A stretch of DNA of 64,000 nucleotides from Bacillota bacterium. Lineage in GTDB: Bacteria > Bacillota > Limnochordia > Limnochordales > DUMU01. Both the position numbers and the translations under genes were made by a program. Below the pieces are notes generated by a model. That model saw only the letters and a list, made by a program, of their open reading frames with translations, was not told the origin of the DNA and searched no databases. The stretch is taken from contig DUMU01000007.1 in the NCBI GenBank assembly GCA_012839805.1, positions 78,374 through 142,373 of the forward strand, given 5' to 3'. This document shows, piece by piece, positions 4,408 through 20,100 of the stretch (the stretch's first letter is position 1; every line of letters starts with the position of its first letter).

Positions 4408-5138
4408 CTCAAAAACCCCCCCTTGTCGAAAACCGCGAAAACGCACGCGGGTGAACCGCTGCCTCCAACCAGTCGTAAGATCCCGATGATCAGGGTGGCC
4501 CCGGTCGCGGGGATCCGATCCAGATTGGTCAGGTTCTCGAGGACGATCCGCGGCTTTTCCAGTACCAGGCGGTTGACGGAAAAGGCCGTGTCGAGACCCG
4601 GGTCGATGCCGGGGGCATCGGTCCCGAGGCCCGCCACCCGGCGTTCGGTCAATAGCCACCGGGCGGCCTCGAGACCAAAGCCCGGGAAATGTAGCCGGCC
4701 CGCCGCGTCCTGGTTCAAGAAGGCCGGCGGATCGTCCCATCGGTCCTGCCAGCCGGTGAGGAGGAGGACGACTACCCCGGCCGGGAACTGCCCGTGGGAG
4801 GACTCCCAGGCTTCCAGGTCACCGAGGGTGACCGCGTAATCCGGTTCAGCTGCGGCCCGGGGGCGGACGTCCACCACCACGGCCGGAACGACGAGCGAAG
4901 AAGCCGGGTAGGTATCGATGGTGGCACCTTCGGGATGGAAGGCAGCCGGCGCATGCAGATGGGTGGCAGTGTGTTCACCCAGGGAAAAGCGGCGAAGGCG
5001 GTAGCCTTCCCGGGCGAAGCTCGCCACCACGGCGAACTCCACCCGGGGGTCGCCGGGCCAACAGGGAATCCCTTCATGGATCGGGTGGCTGAGTTCTACG
5101 ACGTGAGCGAAAGTGAAATCAAAGCCGGGCTTCGACAT
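4326..5138 (-). CDS. cyclase family protein (kynurenine formamidase-like, PF04199-like)
   Basis: 270-aa ORF with HPIHEGIPCWPGDP, GEHTATHLHAP, LLLTGW and GLGTDAPGIDP. The C-terminal ~45 aa tail looks non-homologous and overlaps the M20 start. Confidence 0.75.
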   Translation of the reverse strand: MSKPGFDFTFAHVVELSHPIHEGIPCWPGDPRVEFAVVASFAREGYRLRRFSLGEHTATHLHAPAAFHPEGATIDTYPASSLVVPAVVVDVRPRAAAEPDYAVTLGDLEAWESSHGQFPAGVVVLLLTGWQDRWDDPPAFLNQDAAGRLHFPGFGLEAARWLLTERRVAGLGTDAPGIDPGLDTAFSVNRLVLEKPRIVLENLTNLDRIPATGATLIIGILRLVGGSGSPACVFAVFDKGGFLRCPLRWRKFASKRSPISSKRNATSCRG

Positions 5139-5150
5139 ATCCGTAGCAGG

Positions 5151-5960
5151 TCACAGCTTGAGTTTGGGCCGGGTGGCCTCCCGGAAAGCTTCGGCCAGGA
5201 ACTCTTGACCCCAGTTGATGATGGCGTCGACCTTGCCCGTAGCCGGGTTAACCACCACGACCAGGCCCGGGTAGGCCTCCCACTGCCAGTGCTCGACCGT
5301 GATCGTCTTGTCCTTGTCGGCCTGGTACAGGCGGCCATGTACCCTCGTCTCTGCCGGACCCACCAGCTTCACGGGTTGTACGACGTCCGGTTCGCCCAAA
5401 GAGGCTATGACGTCGCTCTTGGAGGCGCCGATGCCGAAGGCGAGCGGCATAACCTGGTAGAGGTAATTCACCTCCGAAACGCTGCTTTTGACCGTCACCT
5501 GCACCCAGCCGGGCTTGAGGAAGAGGATTTCTCCCGCGGGCGAAACGGTGGCCACCTGCGGGTCGGAGGTGGAAAACTGGAGCAGCTCCTGGCCTGACGG
5601 CCAGGGGATCACGTTGTTGCCCGGCAAAGGACCGGAACCCGTCTCGGTGAGGATGTACCCGCGCACGCCGGCATCCGCAGCCGGTGAAGTGAGGCTTATC
5701 CGGCCGGCACTCGTCGTTGGCGGCAGGTAGACAAGCCAGAAACCAAAGTCGAGCTCAAGATAGCTCCCGTTAGCCACCACCAGGTATAGGGGTGAACCGT
5801 AAGCCGCCAGCGCGTCAGGGTCGACCCCGGCAGCCAGAGCGGCATCTGGGGCCAGGGCGCAGACAACGGCGGAAGCAAAGAAGAGCACAAACAGGCCGGC
5901 AAGCTTGGGGTGGCCCACCGGCGCGATCCGGTAAACCGGCTTGGGCGGCAGGGAGGTCAT
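5151..5960 (-). CDS. hypothetical exported protein
   Basis: 269-aa ORF with an N-terminal hydrophobic signal or anchor (LAGLFVLFFASAVVCALAPDAALAAG). Starts 28 nt after the rnfC stop. No family recognised with confidence; a possible Ig-like segment is VATVSPAGEILFLKPGWVQVTVKS. Confidence 0.55.
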   Translation of the reverse strand: MTSLPPKPVYRIAPVGHPKLAGLFVLFFASAVVCALAPDAALAAGVDPDALAAYGSPLYLVVANGSYLELDFGFWLVYLPPTTSAGRISLTSPAADAGVRGYILTETGSGPLPGNNVIPWPSGQELLQFSTSDPQVATVSPAGEILFLKPGWVQVTVKSSVSEVNYLYQVMPLAFGIGASKSDVIASLGEPDVVQPVKLVGPAETRVHGRLYQADKDKTITVEHWQWEAYPGLVVVVNPATGKVDAIINWGQEFLAEAFREATRPKLKL

Positions 5961-5987
5961 GACTCCGGCGCCTCCTTTCGCCCAGTA

Positions 5988-7493
5988 TTACGCCGCGCCC
6001 TGGGGAATCACCTCCTGCTCCTGGTTCACCGGTTCCGAAGTACCGCGATCCGGCAGGGCGCGTGGTTGCGCGCCAGGTATGCCATTGGACACGGCGCCTA
6101 ACTGGCCGGTGGGCGGGGTGCCGGGTAGGGTGGTTCGCACAGCGGGGCGCGGGTGCTCGCGCCACGCTGCCTTCCCCATACGCAAATACTGAACCAGCGG
6201 CCGGCGGCTCGGGCAACTGTAGGCGCAAGAGCCGCATTCTACGCAGTCCGCCAGCCCCCAGGTGACGGCCTGGTCCAGCCGGCCGGCGGCCACCAGGCGG
6301 GCAAGCTGGAACGGAGCGAGACCTTGCGGGCAGGCGTCGAGGCAGCGCCCGCAACGCAAGCAGGGACCGGCCTCGTCCACGGGCGACGCCCGGGCTGTGA
6401 AGGCCAGTACCCCGCCGCAACCCTTGAGCACGGGGACGTCGAGGTCGGCCACGGCGGTGCCCATCATCGGGCCGCCCAGGATGACCTGTCGCAAAGCGCT
6501 CTCGTCCACCCCGGCTGCCTTGAGCAGTTCCCGAACCGGGAGCCCGATGGGCACCCAGTAGTTGGCGGGCTCGGCGACCGCGTCGCCGTCGACGGTTACG
6601 ATGCGCTGGAGGAGAGGTTCGCCCGTAAGGAGAGCCCGGCCCAGGGCCGAGGCTGTGGCTACGTTATGGACGACGACTCCTACGTCGGCAGGTAGACCCC
6701 GGCGGGGAACGACCCGGCCCGTGATGGTGCGGACCAGGGTGCGTTCAGCGCCCTGGGGGTAAAGGCTGGGAAGGACCCGAACCTCGAACCCGGGCAAACC
6801 TCGTACCATCTGCCGGAGCAGGGCGATGGCATCCGGCTTGTTGTCTTCGATCGCGATCACAACCCGGGAAACGCCAAGAGCCCGCTTCATCGCCCTTGCT
6901 CCCCAGAGCAGGGTGGGGGTTTCTTCGACCATCAAGCGGTGATCGCAGGTGAGATAGGGTTCACACTCGCAACCGTTGAGGATCAGGAAGTCGGGGCGGG
7001 GATCATCCCGGGGAGTCAGCTTGACGTAGCTTGGAAAAAGGCCTCCGCCCATGCCCACGAGCCCGGCTTCTCGAGCCAGCCGGCGGATTCCTTCGGGATT
7101 CATCTCTTCCGGCGAGCCGCCATCGCCGAGAAAGGAGCGGTCAAGGGGAAGGAAGGAGTCTCGACCGTCGTTTTCTATCACTACGGCGGGTATCCACAGG
7201 CCGGAAGGATGTAGACGCGGCTCAACGGCGACCACCCTGCCGCAGATGGGCGCGTGGACGGGGGCGCCAAGGCCGCGCGCTTCCCCGATCTTCTGACCCC
7301 GGATGACCCGGTCACCCTTTTGTACCAGCGGCGAGCACGGCTCCCCGGCGTGTTGCCACAGGGAGACGATCAAGCGCTCGGGCGGTGGCAATCTCTTCAC
7401 TGCTTTCCCGGCGGTGGCTGCCTTCTGCTGGGGAAGCTTCAACCCTGAATGGTGGGGGTTCGTTATTCGTTCCACGAAAGCGGCTGCAAACAC
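5988..7493 (-). CDS. rnfC: electron transport complex subunit RnfC (canonical copy)
   Basis: GTG start. RnfC_N-like QHAGEPCSPLVQKGDRVIRGQKIG...PVHAPICGRVV. NADH/FMN signatures GMGGGLFPS and NGCECEPYLTCDH. Two ferredoxin motifs, CLRCGRCLDACP and CVECGSCAYSCP. Confidence 0.9.
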   Translation of the reverse strand: MFAAAFVERITNPHHSGLKLPQQKAATAGKAVKRLPPPERLIVSLWQHAGEPCSPLVQKGDRVIRGQKIGEARGLGAPVHAPICGRVVAVEPRLHPSGLWIPAVVIENDGRDSFLPLDRSFLGDGGSPEEMNPEGIRRLAREAGLVGMGGGLFPSYVKLTPRDDPRPDFLILNGCECEPYLTCDHRLMVEETPTLLWGARAMKRALGVSRVVIAIEDNKPDAIALLRQMVRGLPGFEVRVLPSLYPQGAERTLVRTITGRVVPRRGLPADVGVVVHNVATASALGRALLTGEPLLQRIVTVDGDAVAEPANYWVPIGLPVRELLKAAGVDESALRQVILGGPMMGTAVADLDVPVLKGCGGVLAFTARASPVDEAGPCLRCGRCLDACPQGLAPFQLARLVAAGRLDQAVTWGLADCVECGSCAYSCPSRRPLVQYLRMGKAAWREHPRPAVRTTLPGTPPTGQLGAVSNGIPGAQPRALPDRGTSEPVNQEQEVIPQGAA

Positions 7494-7502
7494 GGGCGCA
7501 CC

Positions 7503-7537
7503 CTCCTCCGGAGGAGACCGAGATAGTGCGCACTATC
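7503..7537 (-). promoter_or_regulatory. two perfect palindromes in the rnfC leader: CTCCTCCGGAGGAG (covers the SD) and GATAGTGCGCACTATC
   Basis: Read directly: 7503-7516 is a 14-nt perfect palindrome containing GGAGGAG 9 nt upstream of the GTG start. 7522-7537 is a 16-nt perfect palindrome. Confidence 0.45.
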
Positions 7538-7742
7538 ACTAAGGCGGGGAAATAAACACGCGCTCGTGCGCACCACTTGACTCCTTTGCCTCCTGAGCTT
7601 ACCACGCAAGCGGTTCAGCTGCAAGAGATTAGTGGCGAAATTCACGAACTGGTTTCACCAGCTCCAGCCACCGGCCCTGGACCGGCAGCCGCCTCCCGTT
7701 AGCGACCTATAGCTAAAAATACCGGCGGCCGGCTGCGGGGCT

Positions 7743-8813
7743 TCAGCGTGCTACCGCGTCGTAGGGGGCGGCGTTGCTGCCGCGCACGGTTATGACGGTA
7801 CGGTTGGGGACACAGACGATGGACTGGGAGGCATTGGTGATCCAGCCCGTGCGCACGCAGACCTTGTCCGGGCAATCGGACTCGCGCACCCGTATCCGCC
7901 CGGGCTCGACCTCCAGGATCATGCGGCCGCGGGGTGTGTTGAGGGTTAGGAACCGGTTCGTGCGCAAAGGCACGATCATTCGTAACTCACCGGCGACCCG
8001 GACCACTGCCTCGGGGTTGGCAGGAGGCGCGGCAAGACTTCCATGCCACAGCAGGATCAGGAGTGCTGCGAAGGCCAGGACACTGGCTATAGCGCCATCT
8101 CCCACCCGTAGAGAAAGACGGTTACGCCGGGAGAAGAGCGCTTGTGAACGTTCCGCCAGCCCGAGCAGTCGCACGGTCAGCCGGGAAACCTTGGGGGGCG
8201 AGACGTTTCCCCGCGAGGGGGCGGTCTCGGCCGGGAGAGCGCCGGGGTCAGCCACGAGTACCGGCAGGAGATAGGCGGCGATCACGCCTATCAGGGCTCC
8301 GGTAGGCAGGGAAAACCAGAGTAAGTACGGAAGGTAGGCCAAGATGGCCCAGCCGCCGGTGAGGAGGCGGGCGACGAGGAGTTGGGCCACATTGTGGGTG
8401 GCCGCTCCCGCGATGCTCACTCCCGTGGGCGAAAGACGGCCGCGGGCGACGCGAGAGGTGACGGACATAGCTCCGACGCTGGCGATGCCGCCGCCAAGCC
8501 CGAAGAGGAAGGGGGCCGAGAGGAAAGTACCCGTGGCCAGCGACCCGAGGACCTGGCGGGCAACCACGAGCAGCAAAGCCTCCCGCCACCCCCAGATGAG
8601 CACTGCGAGCAAGGAGGCCAGGTTGGCCAGGCCGATCTTGGCGCCGGGCACGGGCAGTGCCGGGAGCAGGCTCTCGAAAACGTAGAGGGTGACGGCGATG
8701 GCGAGGAGAACGCCCAGGTAGGCTGCCTTGCGGGTGCTATTCCCCAGGCCTTTCGTGGCCACGGCCACCGGCGATGCGGTTCCGGTGACGGGCAGGGCAC
8801 GAACCTCGTTCAT
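7743..8813 (-). CDS. fusion protein: Gx transporter (Hpre_diP_synt_I, PF07456-like) N-terminal membrane domain plus NusG domain II (PF07009-like) C-terminal domain
   Basis: N-terminal half is polytopic (LGVLLAIAVTLYVFESLLP...GAKIGLANLASLLAV...ATHNVAQLLVARLL). C-terminal half has a TM helix followed by VVRVAGELRMIVPL...ILEVEPGRIRVRESDCPDKVCVRTGWI...IVCVPNRTVITV. ATG at 8813 overlaps the apbE stop (ATGA). GTG at 8822 is an alternative. Confidence 0.75.
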   Translation of the reverse strand: MNEVRALPVTGTASPVAVATKGLGNSTRKAAYLGVLLAIAVTLYVFESLLPALPVPGAKIGLANLASLLAVLIWGWREALLLVVARQVLGSLATGTFLSAPFLFGLGGGIASVGAMSVTSRVARGRLSPTGVSIAGAATHNVAQLLVARLLTGGWAILAYLPYLLWFSLPTGALIGVIAAYLLPVLVADPGALPAETAPSRGNVSPPKVSRLTVRLLGLAERSQALFSRRNRLSLRVGDGAIASVLAFAALLILLWHGSLAAPPANPEAVVRVAGELRMIVPLRTNRFLTLNTPRGRMILEVEPGRIRVRESDCPDKVCVRTGWITNASQSIVCVPNRTVITVRGSNAAPYDAVAR

Positions 8814-10057
8814 GGGGCCCACCGCCCCCGCCCGGCCAGCTCCACCTTACCCTTCAAGCCGCTCGTGACCTTGACCGAAAAGTCGGGGAGCACGAAGATT
8901 CCTTCCACACCGGGCAAAGACTCGAGTAGCTCCAAACCCTTGACCGGCCCTAACACGAAGGCGGCGGTAGAGAGCGCATCGCCAAGCCCCCCGTCAGGGG
9001 TGATAACCGTCACGCTCAGGACCTGCCCGGCCGGCCACCCGGTGTGAGGATCGAGCAGGTGACTGTAGCGGGTGCCGTCATACTCGAAATACCGCTCGTA
9101 ATCCCCGGAGGTGGCGAGCGCCTCGTCGGCCACCGGGACTATGGCGATCACGCTGCTCGGGTCACGGGGATCCTGTACCCCGGCCCGCCAGGGCTCGCCA
9201 CTATTCTTCTTGCCGAGGGCATAGATGTTTCCGCCGAGGTCTAACAGGGCGCTGGTGACCCCGTGCCGGCGTAAGACTTCGGCGGCCTTGGCTACGGCAT
9301 AACCTTTGGCAATACCGCCCAGGTCCAGGGCCTGGCCCGGCCGCCGGAGCCTCACCTTCCGGCCGGCCTCGTCGATCTCTACGTCCGAGAACGAAACCAG
9401 GGACAGGAGTTTGGCGATGGCATCTTGGGAGGGCGGGCGATGGCCCCGCAGGTGGGTCGGGCCCATGCCCTCGAGGGGCGACTCCGGCGTGCTCGCCTCC
9501 GTGGGAGCAGTCTCCTCGGTCTCGACGAAGCCCCAGAGATCGACCAGGGGCGCGATGGTGGGATCGAACGCGCCGTGGCTCGCCTCATGGACGCGCCGGG
9601 CGGTCAACAGCATGGAGACGAGATCGGGGGATACCCGGATCCACGTCCCGTCGCCCGCGTGCCGGTTGATCTCCGCCACCTGGGTGTCGTCCCGGAACCG
9701 GTCGACTTGCGCGGCCAGCCGGTCGAGTTCGGCCAAGGCGGCCTGCACGGCCTTTTCCGCCTGGGTCCGGGTTGCCGCCGTCGCCCGGATCTGGGCGTAC
9801 GTTCCCATCGTAAAGGAGACTGCCTGGGCCTCTGCCGCCTGGGTCTGGTCGGCAGGGACGGCCGACGGTCCGGCTTGATTCGTGGTCACCGCGCCGGCGG
9901 CGTGCTGGCCCTCGCGACCCTGGCAGCCGGCCACGCCCAGGGCAACGGCGAGGAGCAACAGGCCGGTGAGGGCGGCGCCGGGCCCTCCCCGGCGAGGGCC
10001 GAACGAGATCCCGGCGGAACTGGTCACAAATCCCGGGCGAACCGTTGCTATCACCAC
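8810..10057 (-). CDS. apbE: FAD:protein FMN transferase ApbE, probable lipoprotein
   Basis: 415-aa ORF with lipobox LGVAGC. ApbE-like blocks FTMGTYAQIRA, FDPTIAPLVDLWGF, LDLGGIAKGYAV, LLDLGGNIYALG, ATSGDYERYF, HLLDPHTG. GTG start 22 nt after rnfB; exact start uncertain. Confidence 0.85.
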   Translation of the reverse strand: MVIATVRPGFVTSSAGISFGPRRGGPGAALTGLLLLAVALGVAGCQGREGQHAAGAVTTNQAGPSAVPADQTQAAEAQAVSFTMGTYAQIRATAATRTQAEKAVQAALAELDRLAAQVDRFRDDTQVAEINRHAGDGTWIRVSPDLVSMLLTARRVHEASHGAFDPTIAPLVDLWGFVETEETAPTEASTPESPLEGMGPTHLRGHRPPSQDAIAKLLSLVSFSDVEIDEAGRKVRLRRPGQALDLGGIAKGYAVAKAAEVLRRHGVTSALLDLGGNIYALGKKNSGEPWRAGVQDPRDPSSVIAIVPVADEALATSGDYERYFEYDGTRYSHLLDPHTGWPAGQVLSVTVITPDGGLGDALSTAAFVLGPVKGLELLESLPGVEGIFVLPDFSVKVTSGLKGKVELAGRGRWAP

Positions 10058-10078
10058 CGTCTACGACAACCCAAGAAT

Positions 10079-10939
10079 CTAAGAAGCCGCCTGACCGGCC
10101 CCGGCCGGGAGCGCTTCCCCGGCCTCCTCCTCTCTCCGGCACTCAATGACATGAGTGGGACACTTGGCCGAACACTGGCCGCAAGCGATGCAAAGCTCCG
10201 GCGTGATCGTGGCGAGGTTGCCCAGGACGTGGATGGCATCGTGTTCACAAAGGCGTTCGCAGATGTTGCAGGCGATGCAGCCCGCCTGGCAGACCTGGCG
10301 CACCAGCTTCCCGGGGAGGGGTGACAAGCAGTTGACGAAGGTGCGGCGGCCGGCATCTACCAGCTGGATGACGCCCCGCGGGCAGACCTGGGTGCAGATG
10401 CCACAGCCGGTGCACTTTCTTTCGTCCACCACGGGCAATCCTTCGGGACCCATGGTAAGGGCATCGAAGGGGCAGGCTTCTACGCAGGTGCCAAAGCCGA
10501 GACATCCGTAGGTACAGGCCTTACCTCCCCCGCTCACGAGTTCGGCCGCCCGGCAGTCGGGGAGCCCCCGGTACTCGCCGGTACGTTTGGCGAGGGCTTG
10601 CGTGCCGGCGCAGAAAACGTGGGCCACCTGGCGAGTCACGCCGGCCGGGGCGGCAACGCCCAGGACTTCGGCCACCCGGGCAGCCACGCCCGGGCCACCG
10701 GCCCGGCAGCCATCGGCCGGGGCTTTGCCCTCCACGGCCGCCTTGGCAAAGCCGGAGCAGCCGCTGAAACCACAAGCGCCACAGTTGGCGCCGGGAAGGA
10801 GGTTCGCCAGCAGTTCAACCCGGGGATCTTCCTGAACGGTGAACCGCCGGGAAGCCCACACGAGCAGTACTGCGAAAGCGACGGCCAGCAATCCCATGGA
10901 GAGGGAGGCGGCCAGGATCGAGCTCAGCATGCTTTCCAC
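10079..10939 (-). CDS. rnfB: electron transport complex subunit RnfB
   Basis: N-terminal TM helix, CGACGFSGCSGFA cluster motif, then several CxxCxxCxxxCP ferredoxin repeats. Confidence 0.9.
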   Translation of the reverse strand: MESMLSSILAASLSMGLLAVAFAVLLVWASRRFTVQEDPRVELLANLLPGANCGACGFSGCSGFAKAAVEGKAPADGCRAGGPGVAARVAEVLGVAAPAGVTRQVAHVFCAGTQALAKRTGEYRGLPDCRAAELVSGGGKACTYGCLGFGTCVEACPFDALTMGPEGLPVVDERKCTGCGICTQVCPRGVIQLVDAGRRTFVNCLSPLPGKLVRQVCQAGCIACNICERLCEHDAIHVLGNLATITPELCIACGQCSAKCPTHVIECRREEEAGEALPAGAGQAAS

Positions 10940-11008
10940 CTCATCTCATCACGACACCTTACCTGACGAGCTTTGGGTCGGTAGCCCTTTTGCGTCCCTG
11001 CACGAACC

Positions 11009-11599
11009 TCAAGATGCCGGCACGAGCCCGCTGAACCCCATGAAGGTCAGGCTCATAATGGCGGCGATCAGAAGCGAAAGAGCCGGCCCTTGCAAGCTCA
11101 AGGGCACGTCGGCGAACTCCAGCTCTTCGCGCAAGCCGGCCATCAGCACAATGGCGAGAGTCCAGCCCACCGCGCTACCGACCGAGAACACCAGGGTCTC
11201 GAGCAGCCCGTAATCGCTCCCCGCCACCAGCAAGGCCACCCCGAGGATGGCGCAGTTGGTGGTGATGAGCGGCAGGTAGATTCCGAAAGCCTCGTAGAGC
11301 GAGGGACTGTAACGGCGGATCACCATTTCGAGGAATTGCACCAGCGTGGCGATGACCAGGATGAAGACGACGTACTGAAGGAACGGCAGGTGGAAGGGTA
11401 CGAGGATGTACCGCTGGATCGCCCAACTGACCGCACCGGATATGGTCATGACGAAGGTTACCGCCGCTCCCATTCCCAGGGCGGTCTCGAGGCGCTTGCT
11501 CACGCCGAGGAAGGCACAGATGCCCAGGAACCGGCTGAGGATGAAGTTATTGATCAGGGCCGAACCCACGAAGAGCAGAACCAGTGAACTGAAGCTCAT
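11009..11599 (-). CDS. rnfA: electron transport complex subunit RnfA
   Basis: 196-aa polytopic protein: MSFSSLVLLFVGSALINNFILSRFLGICAFLGVS...ITTNCAILG. Confidence 0.9.
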   Translation of the reverse strand: MSFSSLVLLFVGSALINNFILSRFLGICAFLGVSKRLETALGMGAAVTFVMTISGAVSWAIQRYILVPFHLPFLQYVVFILVIATLVQFLEMVIRRYSPSLYEAFGIYLPLITTNCAILGVALLVAGSDYGLLETLVFSVGSAVGWTLAIVLMAGLREELEFADVPLSLQGPALSLLIAAIMSLTFMGFSGLVPAS

Positions 11600-11615
11600 G
11601 ATGCCCCCTGCCCCC

Positions 11616-12359
11616 TTAGTTACTCAAACTGAGCCCCGCCGTTGAGGCCCCGGCTCCCGTGCCCGTCGTCGCAGCGGTTACGCCGGCCCCGGAGCCACGG
11701 GCGCGTTCGAGGCGACGGGCGGCCCGTTCTTTCGCAAGGCGCGACCCGAGGTTGAAGAGCCCGACGATCGCGCCCATGGTCAGGAAGGCGCCCGGCGGCT
11801 GCAGCATCACCCGCCAGGTGACGAAGCCGGGCGGCATTACCGGATGCCCCAGGAGCGAACCACTGCCTAGCAGCTCACGGACGATCCCGATCATGACCAG
11901 TGAGATGGTATAGCCGATGCCATACCCGAACCCATCGGCCAATGCCCGGTCGACGGGGACGTGGGAAGCCCACGCCTCGGCCCGCCCCAGGATGATGCAG
12001 TTGACTACGATGAGCGGAACGAAAAGCCCGAGGACCTTGTGCACCTGGGGCACGGTGGCGGCGAGTACCAGGTCGGCGATGGTGACGAAGGTGGCAATGA
12101 TGATGGTGTAGACCGGGATGCGGACTTCTCGCGGGACGATCTTGCGGATGGCGGAGACCATCACGTTGGTACCGACCAGCACGAAGATGACCGCCGCGCC
12201 CATGGCGAGGCCGTTCACTACCGCGGTGGTGACGGCCAGGGCAGGGCAGAAAGCGATCATCAGCCGGAAGGGCGAACTCTCCGTCCACACGCCTCGGAGG
12301 AAGTCCGTCCCCAGCGTCCGTAGCTTGCTCGGCTCACGACCGGTGCTCACAGCGCTCAT
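11616..12359 (-). CDS. rnfE: electron transport complex subunit RnfE
   Basis: NPFRLMIAFCPALAVTT... and VVNCIILGRAEA motifs. Has a ~40-aa Ala/Gly/Thr-rich C-terminal tail. Confidence 0.9.
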   Translation of the reverse strand: MSAVSTGREPSKLRTLGTDFLRGVWTESSPFRLMIAFCPALAVTTAVVNGLAMGAAVIFVLVGTNVMVSAIRKIVPREVRIPVYTIIIATFVTIADLVLAATVPQVHKVLGLFVPLIVVNCIILGRAEAWASHVPVDRALADGFGYGIGYTISLVMIGIVRELLGSGSLLGHPVMPPGFVTWRVMLQPPGAFLTMGAIVGLFNLGSRLAKERAARRLERARGSGAGVTAATTGTGAGASTAGLSLSN

Positions 12360-12483
12360 GCGTCAGTCGACACTCCTCTCAAACTCACCCGCTCGGCCCG
12401 GCCGGCGACGACCGCCATCGCCGACGGCCGGGCCGGGCTTACTCACCGGTTGACTCCGCGCGCACGCTCGCGTGCCCGCCCGG

Positions 12484-13581
12484 TCACTCTATCAAGCCGG
12501 ACGCGCGAGCCGCTGCGATCCCGTAGCGAACGGCTTCGGCCACCGCCTGAGAGGAGACGGTAGCCCCGCTGATCGTGTCGAGGTCCTCACCAACCTCCAG
12601 GCGGGCGTCGATGCTCTTCCCGGCGAACTGGCGCTGGAAAGCGGCATCAGTGGCGATCTTGTCTCCCACGTCCGGGGTTTCGCTCTGGTGGTAGACCCGG
12701 ACGTTGATCAGCGTCTTGTCGGCCGGATCGATCACCCCGAGCACCTCCACCGGCCCTTCCATCCCGGCGGCCGCGGCCCGGAAACCGATCGCTCCGGTCT
12801 CTCCGGTGGAAGAAATGCCCTGGAAGATCTCGGGGTCGGTCTTGGCTCCTTCCGCGGGGAAAGTGCCGATGGAGACGAACATGACCACGTCCACCCCCGC
12901 ATCGGGCGGTACCACGGCGAGCAGGGCTTCCGCCGGGTCGCCGGCCAGCTCGGGCAGGGCGTTAGTAGAACCCTCGCTCGTGGTGCTACCGCCCCCGGTG
13001 GCTGCCGGCACCGCTGCTGCCATCACCACGGGCTGGCCCATCCGTTGCATGGCGGCTTGGATACCCGTCCGGACGATATCGACCGCGGCCCGTGACGATA
13101 TGGTGGCGCCGGTGATGCCGTCGATGTCCTGGTTCAGCTGATAGGCATCGGTGAGGGACTTACCGGCAAACTGGTCGGTGAAGGACGGCTCTTGAATGCG
13201 AGAGCCGAGCCCCGGCGTCTCCGAAAGCTGGAGAACGCGGATCCCCACCAGCGACTTGCGGTCGGCACTCAGCCCGATCGCCATCTTGATCGGCCCGCCG
13301 AACCCGTCGCCGCTCGCCTTGAAGGCGTACCCGAGCACGCTTCCGTCCGCGGCGAGTACTCTGTAGACGGCATCGTCGGCCTCGGCCGAGCTGGGCGGTA
13401 CCTCTTCTTCGAAGCTGGCCGCCTCCGGGAACAGCCCCTTGAAGCCCAGCTCGAGGTCGGCTTTCTGCCGGTTGGCTTCGATGATGGGGTTGAGCCAGGT
13501 GTAAAAGCCGGCCAGAGTCCCGCCGGATAGGATGGAAACCAGAGCCAATACCAGGATCATGCGCCAGGTGGAACTACGCAC
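12484..13581 (-). CDS. rnfG: electron transport complex subunit RnfG with two tandem FMN-binding domains
   Basis: N-terminal anchor MILVLALVSILSGG. Two FMN_bind-like modules end in DIDGITGATISSRAAV and DLDTISGATVSSQAVA. 365 aa, against ~200 aa for a usual RnfG. Confidence 0.88.
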   Translation of the reverse strand: MRSSTWRMILVLALVSILSGGTLAGFYTWLNPIIEANRQKADLELGFKGLFPEAASFEEEVPPSSAEADDAVYRVLAADGSVLGYAFKASGDGFGGPIKMAIGLSADRKSLVGIRVLQLSETPGLGSRIQEPSFTDQFAGKSLTDAYQLNQDIDGITGATISSRAAVDIVRTGIQAAMQRMGQPVVMAAAVPAATGGGSTTSEGSTNALPELAGDPAEALLAVVPPDAGVDVVMFVSIGTFPAEGAKTDPEIFQGISSTGETGAIGFRAAAAGMEGPVEVLGVIDPADKTLINVRVYHQSETPDVGDKIATDAAFQRQFAGKSIDARLEVGEDLDTISGATVSSQAVAEAVRYGIAAARASGLIE

Positions 13582-14560
13582 GAACAGAAACCTCCTTTGG
13601 ACGCGGCAGCGTGAGGCGGTTGATCAGCGGTGTGCACATGTTGAAGAAAAGGATGGCAAAGGAGACGCCCTCCGGATAACTGCCCCAGAGCCGGATGACC
13701 ATGGTCATCACGCCGATGCCCAGGGCATATATCCACCGGCCCCATTTGGTAAGCGGGCTCGTCACCCAGTCGGTGGCCATGAAGAACGCTCCCAGCACCA
13801 ATCCACCGGAAAGAACGTGAAGTAGCGGATCTTGCCCGCCGGCCCAGGCGAAAAGGGCCGCCGAGCCCAGCACCCCCGCCGGGATTCGCCAGTCGATGAC
13901 CTGAAAAGCTATGAGTATGAGACCACCGAGCAAGAGAGCCGCTATAGCAGTCTCACCCAGTGAACCGCCATGATAGCCCGCGAGCAGTTCAAGGTAGGAG
14001 GGAACGCCTGCCCCCTTGGCCATCGCGGCCAGGGGGGTAGCGCCGGTTACCGCGTCCACCCCGCGTATCGGGCCGCCGAAATCCGTGAGGATCTGGGGAA
14101 AGGTGACCAGCAGGAAAACCCTCCCGACCAGCGCCGGGTTGAACAGGTTATGACCCAGGCCGCCGAACGCGTGCTTTCCCAGCAGGATGGCGATGGACGC
14201 TCCGATCACCACCGTCCAGAGGGGAACGGAGGGCGGCAGGGTGAGCGCGAGCAAAAGTCCCGTCACGGCCGCACTTCCATCGAGGAGATACCGCCCGGGC
14301 GAACGGCGCCGGGCCCAAACCGCCAGGGCCTCGACCGCCAGTGCGGTCAGGACCGATGCCCCGACCACCCGGAGCACCCGGAGTCCGAAGATGTAGGCCG
14401 CCACTCCCACTACGGGCAAGAGCGTGGCAAGCACCAAGTACATGGCCCGCTGGGCGGTAAGCGGTGAATGGAGGTGGGGAGAGCTAGAGAGAAGCAGAAG
14501 GCGTGTTCCAACGCCTCCGGTCTCCCGTCGCGGCTCAAGCGTTGGCGAAACCGTGTTCAT
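13574..14560 (-). CDS. rnfD: electron transport complex subunit RnfD
   Basis: 328-aa polytopic protein with the flavinylation motif VDAVTGATPL. ATGA overlap with the upstream gene and an 8-nt overlap with rnfG. Confidence 0.9.
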   Translation of the reverse strand: MNTVSPTLEPRRETGGVGTRLLLLSSSPHLHSPLTAQRAMYLVLATLLPVVGVAAYIFGLRVLRVVGASVLTALAVEALAVWARRRSPGRYLLDGSAAVTGLLLALTLPPSVPLWTVVIGASIAILLGKHAFGGLGHNLFNPALVGRVFLLVTFPQILTDFGGPIRGVDAVTGATPLAAMAKGAGVPSYLELLAGYHGGSLGETAIAALLLGGLILIAFQVIDWRIPAGVLGSAALFAWAGGQDPLLHVLSGGLVLGAFFMATDWVTSPLTKWGRWIYALGIGVMTMVIRLWGSYPEGVSFAILFFNMCTPLINRLTLPRPKEVSVRA

Positions 14561-15972
14561 CGGTTACCTAACCTCACTTCTGCGTGACAGCTGGCTACTG
14601 CTACCTGTTGCTCCCGTGGCCGTTTACCGGTCGGGGACGCCTTCCCGTTGGAGGATGAGGCGATGCCGGTTTGACGGCCGTTCTCTTCGGAAGCTTTCTC
14701 CGGCTTACGGCGGGAGAGCTCATGCTGGGCGAGCCTGATCAGCTGAACCAGGGGGAGCCGCGCCGGGCATGCATAGGCGCACAGGCCGCAGGCATAACAC
14801 TTTTCCGCTCCCTGCCGGGCCGCCTCCTCCCAGCGATGGAGACGGGCGAGGCGGCCGAGGACCGCGGGAGCAAGTCCCTCGGGACATATGGCAACGCACC
14901 GGCCACAATGGAGGCAGACGCCCACGCCTGGGGAGGCTTCCAGAAAGGCGTCACCCAGCGCGAGATACCCCAGATCGCCCAGGCTGATGTAAGCATCTTC
15001 CAGGGGGAGAGCTTCACCCGCCAGGTAGCCGCCCCGAACCAGGAGACGAAGACGTGCGTAATCGACCCCCGCGGCTTCGAGGAGGGCGCTAACCGGAGCC
15101 CCGATGGGCACCCGGTAAGTACCGGGCCGGGCGACCGCGTCCCCCCCTATGGAGACGAGGACATCGACGGGAGGCAGAAACGTCTGCAAGCTCCTGCCCA
15201 CGGCCGCCGCGATCTCGACGCCGACAATGGCCGCATTGCTGAACCGGGCGGCCAGCATCTCCGGACGCCCCGCCGGGTAACCGGCCGGAACTAGCAGCAC
15301 TTCGGCGGGGAGGAGGTCGCGCCGTAAAGCGGCAAGTTCAGTGGCGGAAAGGGTCCCTTCAGCTATCGCCAGCCAGCCCTGGCGGTTGCCTGGCGCTCCC
15401 GGGCCGGATAGGATGGCGGTTACTCCGGCGGCGACGTCGGCCCTCCGTTCGTGAAGCAGGGCCCGGCGACCGAAGACTCCCTCGTCGGGGTCGCACCCGT
15501 TGAAAACGATAATGCCCGCGGTGGTGAGGGGCTCAGGGTCTACGCCGGCAAGGCGGCAGGCGTGGCGGAGGCGATCCCCGACGGGGGTTGTGCCTGCCCG
15601 GCGGTTGGTGCCTTGCTTCTCTGCCCCGGCTTCCGCCACCGGCTGGATGGCAACGAACGGAACCAACCCGGACCCACCCGTGTCCGGGGCCGGCCGGAAG
15701 CCGGCGTCCACCACTTTGCCGGCCACCGGGCTGAAAAGGCAACCGTCTTCAGGTGCATCCTGCGGGCCGGCCAGTACTGTACCGGGCCTCACGAGATCAC
15801 CCTTTTTCACTACCGGCACGAGAGCCCGCCCGGTAAGGTCTTGCCCGCGAAAGACCAGAATTGAAGGGGAGGTCAGGACCTGGCTGGGTTGCCAGCCTCC
15901 CTCCCCTCGGGTAAACAGGGACCGCCCCGGTACACGTAGGAGCCGGCCCCGTCCCCGCCTGCGCCACGGCAT
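14557..15972 (-). CDS. RnfC-like subunit lacking the NADH/FMN-binding signatures
   Basis: Has VVKKGDLVRPGTVLAG...FSPVAGKVV, CLHCGRCVAICP and CYACGLCAYACP. The glycine-rich and ECEPY positions read RLAGVDPEPL...FNGCDPDEGVFG. ATG at 15972 is preceded by gggaggg with an 8-nt spacer. The ORF extends to 16059. Confidence 0.8.
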   Translation of the reverse strand: MPWRRRGRGRLLRVPGRSLFTRGEGGWQPSQVLTSPSILVFRGQDLTGRALVPVVKKGDLVRPGTVLAGPQDAPEDGCLFSPVAGKVVDAGFRPAPDTGGSGLVPFVAIQPVAEAGAEKQGTNRRAGTTPVGDRLRHACRLAGVDPEPLTTAGIIVFNGCDPDEGVFGRRALLHERRADVAAGVTAILSGPGAPGNRQGWLAIAEGTLSATELAALRRDLLPAEVLLVPAGYPAGRPEMLAARFSNAAIVGVEIAAAVGRSLQTFLPPVDVLVSIGGDAVARPGTYRVPIGAPVSALLEAAGVDYARLRLLVRGGYLAGEALPLEDAYISLGDLGYLALGDAFLEASPGVGVCLHCGRCVAICPEGLAPAVLGRLARLHRWEEAARQGAEKCYACGLCAYACPARLPLVQLIRLAQHELSRRKPEKASEENGRQTGIASSSNGKASPTGKRPREQQVAVASCHAEVRLGNR

Positions 15973-16068
15973 GATCCAATCCCTCCCGTCGACAATGCAA
16001 TGCATGCCCCAGCGGTGATTTGGGGGCAGGTGCGGACGGCCCCGCCTGCCCCCAAGCAAGCGAACGGT

Positions 16069-16803
16069 TCAGCGCTCGGCGGCCTTCAGGGCGTTGGCTA
16101 CCGCTTCCTTGTATTTGTTGCCGCTGTTGGTCGCGCCGGTAACCACGTCCACTTGCTCGATCTCAGCCACCGAGCTCTTGCCGACGAAACGCTTTTGCAT
16201 TTCGTCCCGGGCGGTGACGGCGACTTTGTACGAGTAGTTCTTCCAATCCTTGAACTTACCGTCGGTGACCTCGTCCAGCCGCACCGCCTTGATCTTGTCG
16301 TTTTCCACCGTCACCCAGGCCACGGCGTAGCCATGGCTGTCCGCCTTGCTCTTGCCAAAGAAAGTACCTTCGAAGTACTTGGCTTTGGATTCAGGAGTCA
16401 CGCGCGCCTTGGCCAGCGCCCGCTCTACCGCCTGAATCCATTTGCGGCTGCTGCTGGTCGCCTTGGCGTAGACATCGACCTGGGGGCCGTTGTTGGCCAC
16501 GAAATCTTTTTCGAGCTTCTCCTTGGCCTCTTTGGCTGCCGGCCAAGGATACTTATCGTAGTCCTTGGGTTCCCCGAACTGGGTTATTTCGCTCAGGGTG
16601 ACGCGTACGATCTTGTCATCCTTGATGACTAGTACGGCCATGCCATAGCCATGGTCGTCTGCGTCTGAGATACCGGTGGTAACCCCATCCTTGTAGATCT
16701 TCCCGGCCGTCCGGCCCGTGAGCGGCAGTGCTACTGCAGTTGCTACCGCGAGGATCCCGACGAGTAAGACGACGCGGCTCCAACCTTTGAGAACGCGATC
16801 CAT
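16069..16803 (-). CDS. extracytoplasmic protein with two FMN-binding (FMN_bind, PF04205-like) domains
   Basis: ATG at 16803 after aggaggg (8-nt spacer). Signal or anchor WSRVVLLVGILAVATAVAL. Two repeats start YKDGVTTG.../FEGTFFGK... and end VDVYAKATSSS and VDVVTGATNSG. Confidence 0.8.
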   Translation of the reverse strand: MDRVLKGWSRVVLLVGILAVATAVALPLTGRTAGKIYKDGVTTGISDADDHGYGMAVLVIKDDKIVRVTLSEITQFGEPKDYDKYPWPAAKEAKEKLEKDFVANNGPQVDVYAKATSSSRKWIQAVERALAKARVTPESKAKYFEGTFFGKSKADSHGYAVAWVTVENDKIKAVRLDEVTDGKFKDWKNYSYKVAVTARDEMQKRFVGKSSVAEIEQVDVVTGATNSGNKYKEAVANALKAAER

Positions 16804-16955
16804 TTCGCAAGCCCTCCTGACTGGTTGAGATTGCGGGTTCACCACGGTAGCCCGGATCACCGGGCTTTCCCAACATTAGTACCTACGTGTTGTCCGTCCC
16901 GAATCCTCCCCCCTTGCTCAACTGGGCCGGCCGCGGGAGCCGGCGGAGCCGAAGG

Positions 16956-16973
16956 TTGTGCCTTTCTTCACAA
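16956..16973. promoter_or_regulatory. Rex-like operator (TTGTGcc-N4-TTCACAA)
   Basis: TTGTGCCTTTCTTCACAA read directly. Matches the 18-bp Rex consensus TTGTGAA-N4-TTCACAA except for two positions. Lies in the divergent region between the rnf cluster and the protease gene. Confidence 0.45.
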
Positions 16974-17186
16974 TGTTGGTCAAACGAAAATGGCCACCCG
17001 GCCAGCCTCATTCCTCGGTTGCCTTGTTCTCCCCGGCTGAACTTTACGCCTCCGGCGCGGGATTGTCAACCGGCCTCTACCGCCCCCTTCGTTTTCGCCT
17101 GCGGCTCAATTACATTAGCAGGAGTTTCCTGGTGAGGATCGAAGAATACTAGGTAGCACTATTTACCGACCGGTGGGAAAGGAGAT

Positions 17187-20100
17187 ATGCAGATGCGGCC
17201 CGCTTTCCGTCGCAAGTTGCCGCTGGCCTGCATTCTGGCGGCTGGGTTGCTTCTTTCGTGCACTGCGCCTCTCTTGTCCGCTGCCGGACCGGCGACGCGG
17301 GCTCCATCAGTATCGCCACAGCCCGGGCTTGACGGGGGGGCGATCGTTCCTCCGCCCTCAGGATCGCCGCGGCAAGAGTTCCTGCCAGGTGAGGTCCTGG
17401 TCAAGCCGAAGATCAAGATCCATCCTGGGGTGGCCATGTCCCAGGCGGTGGCCAGCGCCGAGGTCGGAGTGAAGACTTCCGTCGCCGAGTTGGTGGGGAT
17501 CGAGCCACAGGCGGTCAAGGTCAAGCCCATCTCGATGCCGGATGGAAGTCCCCTGCTGGTGGTAAGCATCCCCGAGGGATCGGAGGAGGAAGTGGCCAGG
17601 GCCCTGAGCGCCCGGCCTGACGTGGAGTACGCCGAGCCGAACTACCTTTGGTACCCGGACGATGCCGTCTTCCCGACGGATCCACGTTTCAGCTTCAACT
17701 ACGACTTGCACAACACCGGCCAGGTTTTCGTGCCGCCCCTCGGCTTGAGCGGAACGCCGGACGCGGACATCGACATGCCCGAGGCCTGGGGCATCCATCA
17801 GGCGAGCGGCAGCATCGTCGTGGCCGTCATCGACACCGGCATCTTTATCGACCATCCCGAGCTCGCGGGGCAGATTTGGACGAACCCGGGCGAAATCCCG
17901 GATAACGGCGTGGACGACGATGGGAACGGATACGTCGACGACGTCCACGGCTGGGACTTCTTCAATAACGATAACACCGTCTTCGATTTGGCCGATGGCG
18001 ATGAACATGGCACACATGTTGCCGGGACGATCGGCGCGCTGATGAATAACGGCATCGGTTCGGCCGGTATCAACGGCAAGATCCAGATCATGCCGTTGAA
18101 GTTCATCGGGCCGAACGGCGGATCGACTGAGGATGCAGTCCGGGCCATCGAATACGCTGCGTCTTTTGGCGTGAAAATCTCCAATAATAGCTGGGGCGGT
18201 GGGGGCTACAGCGACGCACTTCGCGATGCCATAGCTAGCTCCGGCATGCTTTTCGTAGCCGCCGCGGGAAACGATGGTTTGGATAACGACGTCGCTCCGC
18301 ACTACCCGTCCTCTTACGACCTGCCCAATGTGCTGGCCGTGGCCTCCAGCGACTGGAACGACGAGCTCTCCGGCTTTTCCAACTACGGGGCGACCAGTGT
18401 CGACCTGGCCGCGCCCGGGGACTTCATCTTCAGCACCTGGGTTCGGAACGTCAACGGAACGGCACAGCCTGCCTTCGCCTGGGCTTCGGGCACGTCAATG
18501 GCTACACCGCACGTAGCCGGGGTGGCTGCTCTCCTGCTCGACAAGTACCCGGACCTGCCGCTCTATCCGGGAGCGCCGGGAGCGCAGCCGGACTCACCGA
18601 CATTGAAGGACGTACTCATGTACTCCGGGGATTACAAACCGGCCTATCAAGGGCTCATGGTTGCCCCGGTCCGGTTGAACGCGGAGCGTGCTTTGGGCCA
18701 GGTCATCGCTCCTATCATTCAGAATCTCACCGTTAACGGCAGGCCTTTTGGCAACCGCACAACTCCGGGCCAGGCGGTGGCGTTCACTGTAACGGCCGAA
18801 ACCCCGTTCAGCACGGTGGCTTCGATCACCTGGGATTTCGGCGACGGGCAGGAGGCAGCCGGGGCGACCGTTACTCACGTCTATGGTCGGCCCGGAGTAT
18901 ATGAGGTCCGGGTAACGGTAACGGACGACGACGGCGATGCATCAACCGCCTTGGCCACGGTCGAGGTGGTAGAGGACAACAGAACGGTTGTCCTGGTGGA
19001 CGACGACGGCAGTGCTGCCAGCGAGATTCCTTTGATTAACGCTCTAGAAGCAGCAGGGCTTCCCTATGTGGTAGCCGCCCCGCAGGCAATTCTGCGGCTC
19101 AACCCCCAGGACCACCCGAACCCGATCTTCTGGGAGACGGGAACGGAGTTATCTGCACTTAACGTATGGGAACAGGGCTTCATCGCCGCGTTCCTCGATG
19201 CGGGTGGGCGTCTCTTCCTGAGCGGTCAGGATGTCTTGGAGGGACTGGCGGGAAGCGACTTCCTGACCCGGTATCTCCACGTTCAGGCCTTCCGGAGTGA
19301 TACGGGGGCAGACGTGATCGAAGGTATCCCCGGCGATCCGGTCACGGGCGGTATCGGTCGCATTCGCCTCCAATTCCCGGAGGGGATCACGGACCGGGCC
19401 GATGACCTTACTCCCACCGAGGATGCCGACCCGATCTTTACGACCTCCCTCAACACCAGCCCGGCGTTGCGCTATATCTCGTCGGATCAGCAAGGACCGC
19501 GCCTGGTCCTCTCTACCGTTTATTTCGGAGCAATCCCGCTCACTAACCCGGATCCGTCCAATGCCCGCGGGTTCGTGCTCAGCATCTACCATTTCCTGAC
19601 CGGGCAGGATGTCAATCTGCCACCGGTCGTCCTCAAGACCGGCGGCTCGTTCCAGATCGGCGACGCTCCTCTCACTGTTCAGGTCAACGCGACGGTAGAG
19701 GACCCCGTTCCCCAACCACTGGCGGTGGCGTACGCCTACTGGGACTTCGGCGATGGTTCACCGGTGGTAGGGGCGAAACCGCAAGAGAACTTCGCGGCCA
19801 GCCATACGTACCAGGCTCCCGGCTTTTACCGGGCGACGCTGCGGGTAGTTGATGACCAGGGTGAGGACACCATCGCCTATCGCAACTTCCTCGTACTCCC
19901 GCCAGGCACGAAGATGATCGCGGTGGACGACGGCGACAATCCCGGGACGTTCGGCCTGATCACCGGGGTTCTCGATCAGCTGGGGGTCCGGTATGTAGCC
20001 GTAACCCCGGACCTGCTGGTGGACGAGACCGGCATTCTCGACGGGGCCTGGCAGTACCCGCTCTTGTGGACCACCGGCGAGATCGGCTATACCGACCACT

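Follow-up and report, generated by a model that had tools for sequence, protein, structure and literature searches.

A probable FAD-supply cassette in an rnf operon: apbE coupled to an EetB-EetA fusion gene in a Limnochordia-like bacterium

Introduction

How does an Rnf complex obtain the flavin that is attached to it outside the cytosol? Covalent flavinylation of RnfG, RnfD and related flavoproteins needs extracytosolic flavin adenine dinucleotide (FAD), and the route by which this FAD is supplied was solved recently, in Listeria only. Here we take up the question at one locus, in a 64,000-nucleotide stretch of DNA (G+C ~65%) from an uncultured Limnochordia-like bacterium of a biogas fermenter (Bacillota; GenBank assembly GCA_012839805.1, contig DUMU01000007.1, positions 78,374 to 142,373), which we call the window. 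On its minus strand, between positions 10,057 and 7,743 and inside an rnf operon, a gene for an ApbE homologue is followed by a single gene whose product joins a polytopic domain annotated as 'heptaprenyl diphosphate synthase component I' or Gx transporter to a domain annotated as 'NusG domain II'. A first account, prepared from the letters of this DNA and called the sequence-only reading below, took both domains for modules of no established function and proposed that their fusion works together with the flavin machinery of the operon, in flavin import or handling or as an additional redox partner. We find that the core of this proposal, a fusion that serves the flavin machinery of Rnf, is supported, and that apbE and the fusion gene quite probably make up the cofactor-supply cassette of the Rnf operon, with the N-terminal half of the fusion working according to the FAD-exporter model of EetB.

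The view of both modules as having no established function is outdated. Rivera-Lugo et al. 2023 (mBio, PMC9973259) identify the PF07456 protein of Listeria as EetB, a subunit resembling the substrate-binding (S) component of energy-coupling factor (ECF) transporters, which forms a FAD exporter with the ECF transmembrane component (ECF-T) FmnA and the ATPases EcfA/A' and feeds the extracytosolic ApbE/FmnB. Listeria delta-eetB strains have negligible extracellular electron transfer (EET) activity and their PplA is unflavinylated (PMC9973259). The same work defines EetB operationally as a PF07456 match above the gathering score, and its Data Set S1 labels NusG_II (PF07009) proteins EetA; for deletion of eetA itself, no EET phenotype was seen in Listeria. 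In the accompanying survey of 31,910 genomes, eetB occurs in 4,214, with eetA as a neighbour in 3,328 genomes, apbE in 2,169 and Rnf genes in 572 Clostridia genomes, and EetA and EetB form a single chain in 14 genomes (PMC9973259). The eet pair, its association with apbE and Rnf and the single-chain EetA+EetB arrangement are thus already published, and the novelty that the sequence-only reading had seen in them does not hold. New here are the conservation of the fusion among Limnochordia-like relatives, with EetB invariably ahead of EetA, a metagenomic chain that also includes ApbE, the ECF-T and ATPase genes that follow the fusion in relatives and are missing from the window, and the second, intact rnfC behind a cassette that otherwise closes the operon.

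Results

One uninterrupted frame encodes both halves of the fusion

The fusion gene starts with an ATG at 8813, within CCATGAAC, and this start overlaps the TGA of apbE in an ATGA (8813-8810), the coupling that the sequence-only reading had described. Here and below, gene identities are taken from Pfam and NCBIfam profile matches, each judged against the cutoff of its own model. Both domain assignments are confirmed in this way: PF07456 (Hpre_diP_synt_I) matches residues 39-185 with all 147 of its positions (135.2 bits; cutoff 30), and PF07009 (NusG_II) matches residues 248-349 (87 bits against a cutoff of 29.6), with the motif DCPDKVCV at residues 313-320. Following the published labels, we refer to the two halves as EetB and EetA. 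The nearest named relative carries the annotation 'Gx transporter family protein [Limnochordales bacterium]', so that the organism probably belongs to Limnochordia, in keeping with the G+C of ~65%.

Is this one gene, or two whose boundary was missed? A missed stop or frameshift between the halves had been named as a possibility, and we find none: the frame is open from 8813 to 7743. It is likewise continuous across both halves in seven of the eight related genome loci (L001-L007), the exception being L008, a long-read metagenome-assembled genome (MAG) with an apparent frameshift within the EetB half. In a biogas-fermenter metagenome contig that is 99% identical to the window (L102, ENA ERZ925060), the same genes, for 415 and 356 residues and with a 4-nt overlap, were called independently. 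Among the genome-collection loci (L001-L020), it is L001 (JBLNBY010000318.1) that has the operon most like that of the window, with a fusion 63% identical and the same gene order. This MAG is deposited as 'Bacteroidota bacterium' and all other relatives are Limnochordia or Bacillota; the label is probably a binning or labelling error.

The EetB-then-EetA chain recurs in diverse proteins

A HMMER scan of 1.84 billion cluster representatives returns 9,993 matches at E<=1e-3, and we take domain architectures from 162 proteins, namely the best 150 of these 9,993 together with the hits of a first search. Among the 162, two-domain proteins number 42, and 40 of them are EetB-then-EetA chains. Aligned with the query, 39 of these chains show 25-61% identity to it, so that the fusion is both recurrent and diverse. 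Four positions of the EetB half (E47, G61, Q144, G172) and three of the EetA half (C319, C334, P336) are invariant across this alignment, and C314 is at least 90% conserved. The two remaining proteins, P0038 and P0067, carry EetA before EetB; we considered this as a second architecture and rejected it, as they are probable read-through products of overlapping genes (P0038 has a truncated EetA C-terminus and keeps the start Met of EetB) and topologically incoherent. Since EetB followed by EetA is the one topologically coherent order, genuine fusions always have it.

One further chain extends this order. P0056 (682 residues; JGI metagenome 3300042609, locus L101, 5709-7757), whose gene lies at a contig end, carries PF07456, PF07009 and PF02424 in one polypeptide and is thus an EetB-EetA-ApbE triple fusion. 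It has no hydrophobic segment past the EetA anchor, which places its EetA and ApbE domains on the same, outer side of the membrane. In P0108 (361 residues) the domain joined to EetB is a Maf-like nucleotide pyrophosphatase (PF02545), a surprising companion for a subunit proposed to bind FAD.

Predicted structure and topology

We modelled the fusion with AlphaFold2 from an alignment of 12 fused homologues (mean predicted local distance difference test score, pLDDT, 72.8; predicted template modelling score 0.62), with both domains mostly at pLDDT 85-95. The EetB half folds into helices at residues 23-49, 63-73, 76-94, 100-123, 129-152 and 155-187, and the beta-barrel of the EetA half spans residues 265-346. 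Searched against the PDB with Foldseek, the helical half finds as its best membrane-protein match the riboflavin S-component TmRibU (5KBW/5KC0, TMt 0.65-0.68); RibU 3P5N, ThiT and FolT come next. The barrel finds the DUF1312 structures 4ESN, 4OBI (E. faecalis EF3258) and 3LD7 at TMt 0.78-0.83, and a profile search of PDB sequences, with hits to 4ESN (3e-15), 4OBI and 2KPP, is in agreement.

Arg and Lys are concentrated in the N-terminus, the loop at residues 124-128 and the linker, and by the positive-inside rule these flanks place both ends of EetB in the cytoplasm. Because the seventh helix follows a cytoplasmic linker, the barrel is placed outside, where it is also expected for a stand-alone EetA with a single N-terminal anchor. 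The fusion is thereby predicted to set the EetA barrel on the same face of the membrane as ApbE.

ApbE and its acceptor sites

The product of the upstream gene matches PF02424 over the complete profile (positions 1-266 of 266; 293 bits). The NCBIfam equivalog for the E. coli-type ApbE scores 147 bits against a cutoff of 498, so we regard the protein as a member of the family and not as an E. coli-type orthologue. Its N-terminus has a hydrophobic stretch followed by LGVAGC, and a lipobox regular expression matches VAGC at residues 42-45. These features agree with what the sequence-only reading had proposed, and ApbE is predicted to be extracytosolic and lipid-anchored; every one of the relatives checked (8/8) has either a lipobox or a membrane anchor at the N-terminus of its ApbE. 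Potential substrates are encoded in the same operon: canonical [S/T]GAT acceptor sites number at least four, with two in RnfG and one each in RnfD and in a PplA-like protein at the 5' end. Transfer of the flavin mononucleotide (FMN) moiety onto the Thr of [S/T]GAT by ApbE is established biochemistry, as summarised in PMC9973259.

Neighbours of the fusion in related loci

To see the fusion in its genomic setting we use a survey of 100 loci (20 from GTDB genomes, 80 from metagenomes), a sample biased toward relatives of the query that reproduces the published association and is not an independent estimate of it. The pairing and neighbourhood that the sequence-only reading had suggested looking for are evident: EetA adjoins EetB in 78 of the 100 loci, and among the 59 with at least 4 kb of upstream sequence, ApbE is present in 35, two or more Rnf subunits in 30 and either of these in 48. 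The usual layout has separate genes in the order (rnfCDGEAB)-(apbE)-eetA-eetB, with eetA-eetB-rnfCDGEAB in Oscillospiraceae. Every fused locus (9/9) reads rnf...B-apbE-eetB::eetA.

The placement 'inserted between rnfB and rnfC', as the sequence-only reading put it, is therefore right in one part and not in the other. The order rnfB-apbE-fusion-rnfC stands; 'inserted' does not, since apbE-eet is the normal 3' end of rnf in the relatives and in many Clostridia, and it is the downstream rnfC, and not apbE-eet, that we take to be the addition in the sub-lineage of the window (the window, L001-L003 and L102).

Outside this sub-lineage, every fused locus carries a gene for an ECF-T protein (CbiQ) close to the 3' side of the fusion gene, on the opposite strand and hence convergent with it. 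The distance is at most ~1 kb in L004, L005, L006, L008, L021 and L104/105 and at most ~5 kb for L007 and for L103. In L004, L006, L007, L008, L103 and L104 the ECF-T gene is followed by a pair of genes for ABC ATPases or by one for a double ATPase. Directly upstream of rnf-apbE-eetBA in L103, at 1305-2387 on the minus strand, lies a gene for DHBP synthase, an enzyme of riboflavin biosynthesis, which is consistent with a local flavin-supply neighbourhood.

The operon around the cassette

The genes in question belong to a minus-strand block of ten co-directional genes (~16860-5988) with a single internal gap of ~250 nt (Table 1). All six Rnf subunits are encoded, with D, G, E, A and B in canonical order and the NADH/FMN-binding RnfC at the 3' end. 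The PplA-like protein at the 5' end (16860-16069) is without a lipobox, and its two acceptor motifs are a canonical VTGAT and a degenerate YAKAT; together with the double-FMN RnfG, it gives a hint of outward electron transfer by a variant form of Rnf.

Table 1. Features of the rnf-apbE-eetBA operon and of the fusion protein, in positions of the window; aa, residues of the encoded protein; AF2, AlphaFold2; ORF, open reading frame; TM, transmembrane.
Feature	Position	Strand	Basis
Membrane-anchored double-FMN_bind protein, PplA-like	16069..16860	-	PF04205 in two stretches; PplA NCBIfam 41 bits vs cutoff 325
RnfC-like paralogue	14557..16059	-	no Complex1_51K match; TIGR01945 127 bits vs cutoff 246
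RnfD	13574..14560	-	ORF; VTGAT aa 171-175; PF03116 on L102 contig
RnfG, two FMN_bind	12484..13581	-	TIGR01947 161 bits; PF04205 in two stretches; ITGAT aa 156-160, ISGAT aa 337-341
RnfE	11616..12359	-	ORF; syntenic loci; L102
RnfA	11009..11599	-	ORF; orthologues 58-90% identical in syntenic loci; PF02508 on L102
RnfB	10079..10939	-	NCBIfam rnfB models; Pfam FeS/Fer4
ApbE, predicted lipoprotein	8810..10057	-	415 aa; PF02424 E=2e-87; lipobox VAGC, Cys45
EetB-EetA fusion ORF	7743..8813	-	356 aa; PF07456 + PF07009
EetB domain, six predicted helices, ECF S-component fold	8253..8747	-	aa 23-187; PF07456, AF2, Foldseek
Linker, poorly conserved, variable length, predicted cytoplasmic	8106..8252	-	aa 188-236; 9 K+R; low pLDDT; variable alignment columns
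Seventh TM helix, EetA membrane anchor	8043..8105	-	aa 237-257 (AF2); hydropathy peak 2.27 at aa 237-255
EetA beta-barrel, predicted extracytosolic	7746..8042	-	aa 258-356; PF07009; Cys314, Cys319, Cys334-x-Pro
Intergenic gap	7494..7742	-	promoter-like element and palindrome
Intact RnfC	5988..7493	-	RnfC_N, Complex1_51K, SLBB, 2x4Fe-4S; TIGR01945 495 bits, PF01512 158 bits

The operon holds two rnfC-type genes, and they are not equivalent. The protein of the 5' gene is 32% identical to the intact RnfC and keeps both 4Fe-4S motifs. It is without the Nuo51 FMN/NADH-binding domain (PF01512), and the Gly-rich and ECEP motifs for FMN and NADH are lost (GMGGGLFPS has become GTTPVGDRL, and NGCECEPYLT has become NGCDPDEGVF). 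We find this two-rnfC layout, with the second rnfC after a gap of ~170-250 nt, in the window, L001-L003 and L102 only. The other relatives with a fused eetBA have one normal rnfC at the 5' end, and in them the position after the fusion is taken by the ECF-T/A genes. The two genes might serve alternative forms of the Rnf complex, of which one would be NADH-blind and the other NADH-linked. As a side issue, this pair may hold more interest than the cassette itself. The intact rnfC follows a promoter-like element of its own.

This element (TTGCAG at 7624-7619, a 17-nt spacer, TAAGCT at 7601-7596) is conserved between the window and L001-L003 (alignment, n=4). The gap also contains weak terminator-like hairpins (7733-7721, 7573-7558) and a perfect 16-nt palindrome, GATAGTGCGCACTATC, at 7537-7522, which is a candidate operator. 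The equivalent site in L001 and L002 resembles a Rex box; for the palindrome of the window we rejected that reading, as it has more than 3 mismatches to TTGTGAA-N4-TTCACAA. Over positions 5000-18000, gap included, no riboswitch or other known RNA is matched in Rfam at E<=1.

Ahead of the first gene of the operon there is a second promoter-like site (TTGACA-17-TAAAGT, 17069-17041), and between it and that gene, on the minus strand at 16956-16973, a Rex-box-like site, TTGTGAAGAAAGGCACAA, with 2 mismatches to the same consensus. An equal number of window matches arises in 7 of 100 shuffles, and NADH/NAD+-responsive control of the operon from this site is only suggestive. Divergent from the operon, at 17187-22259 on the plus strand, lies a gene for a 1,690-residue secreted protein in which subtilisin-like motifs and repeated domains can be recognised by eye.

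Discussion

A model for the supply of FAD to Rnf

How would the cassette work? By homology with the Listeria genetics, the EetB half would bind cytosolic FAD and present it at the outer membrane surface of the cell. The cycle would be driven by an ECF-T/EcfA-A' module encoded outside the window, as the synteny in relatives suggests. In the predicted topology the linker stays cytoplasmic and the seventh helix carries the EetA barrel to the outer face, beside the EetB pocket, where EetA would most likely retain FAD, hand it to ApbE or dock ApbE, as the fusion order, the topology and the triple fusion would suggest. Lipid-anchored ApbE, by homology with its family, would then take FMN from FAD and attach it to the Thr of [S/T]GAT in RnfD, in both FMN domains of RnfG and in the PplA-like protein.

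Several points weigh against this reading. We find no ECF-T and no ECF-type ATPase in the 64-kb window, nor in the sequence available around L001-L003 and L102; the search of the window combined a Walker A/LSGGQ motif scan, Pfam on the ABC proteins and on every ORF with three or more hydrophobic segments, and tblastn with the CbiQ and EcfA of relatives, and yielded just an ABC-2 exporter and a PnrA-type nucleoside ABC system. ECF modules of group II are commonly shared and encoded away from the S-component. Only 291 of 4,214 genomes have an ECF-T gene beside eetB (PMC9973259), and the absence from the window is, on both these grounds, weak evidence. Moreover, FAD binding, transport and its direction are assigned to the fusion by homology, and in the AlphaFold2 model the linker and the beginning of the anchor helix fall below pLDDT 50. 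Finally, a Listeria delta-eetA strain is without an EET phenotype (PMC9973259), which makes any role of the EetA half a putative one.

It is for this half that the fusions offer a concrete and testable hypothesis, through their fixed B-then-A order and the EetB-EetA-ApbE triple fusion. We tentatively propose that EetA is an extracytosolic hand-off or docking adaptor that couples EetB to ApbE, that the EetB-EetA and EetB-EetA-ApbE chains are snapshots of a three-part flavinylation assembly line, and that in the sub-lineage of the window this line may run without a neighbouring ECF-T/A; we would sooner bet against this extension than for it.

Other explanations of the fusion

Could the fusion instead carry electrons? 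In the original flavin-based EET models, a protein such as this would be an electron-transfer component or extra redox partner, leading from the membrane or from Rnf to extracytosolic flavoproteins, and the extra FMN domains of the operon do need an electron source. Tolar et al. 2022 (PMC9888254) put EetA in the electron path of L. plantarum, where delta-eetA/B loses flavin-dependent iron and anode reduction; that strain is a double eetA/B deletion not complemented by single genes, and its phenotype fits a loss of flavinylation equally well. In Listeria it is PplA flavinylation itself that delta-eetB abolishes. The three strongly conserved cysteines of the EetA half count in favour of this reading, but one of them is absent from EF3258, which keeps two of three, and two are absent from Lin0431, which keeps one; a metal or Fe-S site at this triad is also unlikely in a Sec-inserted extracytosolic domain, and among the fused proteins no haem or Fe-S ligand pattern is conserved. 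Adding the vitamin-binding S-component fold of EetB and the ECF-T and ATPase genes that adjoin the fusion in relatives, we consider an electron-transfer role unlikely.

Slightly less likely still, in our judgement, is a RibU-like importer or salvage S-component for riboflavin, FMN or FAD; flavin import was among the options named in the sequence-only reading. ECF transporters are classically importers, and the nearest solved folds of the helical half are S-components for riboflavin import. Against this, the published direction of transport for EetB is the opposite one, FAD export, and Listeria imports through RibU and needs EetB for extracytosolic flavinylation (PMC9973259). The fusion gene is, moreover, translationally coupled to that of an extracytosolic FAD-consuming enzyme, and the DHBP synthase gene beside the L103 operon suggests an endogenous supply of flavin.

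We give about the same low weight to the idea that the EetB-EetA chain is an ECF-independent facilitator in which the tethered EetA replaces the energising module in the sub-lineage. The distribution of ECF genes makes it worth stating, for they are absent from the 64 kb and from the flanks of L001-L003 and L102 and lie no more than 5 kb from the fusion in all the other fused loci examined, but the shared and distant encoding of group II modules and the rarity of ECF-T genes beside eetB noted above speak against it, and the absence itself rests on partial genome sequence for the organism. Finally, an assembly or gene-calling artefact that joined two neighbouring genes, which the rare EetA-then-EetB read-throughs and the frameshifted L008 might bring to mind, is very improbable indeed, because the frame is unbroken in the window, in L001-L007 and in the independent 99%-identical contig, the EetB-linker-TM-EetA order is common to 40 proteins down to 25% identity, and read-through of the unfused eetA-eetB pair cannot yield the inverted order.

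Comparison with known systems

With the cofactor-supply reading preferred, the locus appears to place a FAD supply of the Listeria type within an Rnf operon, the exporter being joined to its accessory domain in a single polypeptide. Its practical worth is limited. The labels 'heptaprenyl diphosphate synthase component I' and 'NusG domain II', both misleading, can be corrected, and what interest remains lies in the fusion architectures, as a handle on EetA, and in the RnfC duplication nearby.

The closest functional precedent is the Listeria monocytogenes system EetB-FmnA/EcfA/EcfA'-FmnB, with which the window shares PF07456, a predicted S-component fold, an extracytosolic ApbE partner and [S/T]GAT clients; in relatives of the window locus, ECF-T and ATPase genes adjoin the fused gene as well. 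The differences are that EetB in the window is fused to EetA, that the client is Rnf and not an Ndh2/PplA EET chain, that no ECF-T/A is encoded in the window, and that the system is known here from sequence alone. For the fold of the N-terminal half the best structural match is RibU (T. maritima 5KBW/5KC0, S. aureus 3P5N), a six-helix bundle of ~170 residues like EetB, although sequence identity is 15-17%, RibU belongs to another Pfam family and RibU imports riboflavin.

The C-terminal half resembles the DUF1312 proteins EF3258 (4OBI), R. gnavus RUMGNA_02503 (4ESN) and L. innocua Lin0431 (3LD7/2KPP) in its PF07009 match, its barrel, the anchor that precedes it and its partnership with eetB; in the case of EF3258, we infer from locus-tag order and PMC7074142 that it is the EetA of an EET locus. 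The anchor helix of the window protein is unlike theirs in that it is preceded by an entire EetB domain and is not N-terminal. With respect to the cysteines C-x4-C ... C-x-P, the window EetA and 4ESN have all three, EF3258 has the first and last, and Lin0431 has the last only.

In gene content, finally, the nearest counterparts are the clostridial clusters rnfCDGEAB-(apbE)-eetA-eetB (572 genomes in PMC9973259; L085, L088, L022 and L052 in our survey), which place the same genes at the 3' end of rnf, or at its 5' end in Oscillospiraceae. Theirs are separate and run A then B, whereas in the window they run B then A, are fused and are followed by an intact rnfC, with a degenerate rnfC-like gene in the 5' slot. 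The fusion thus does no more than fix in one chain two partners whose genes, eetA and eetB, normally lie side by side.

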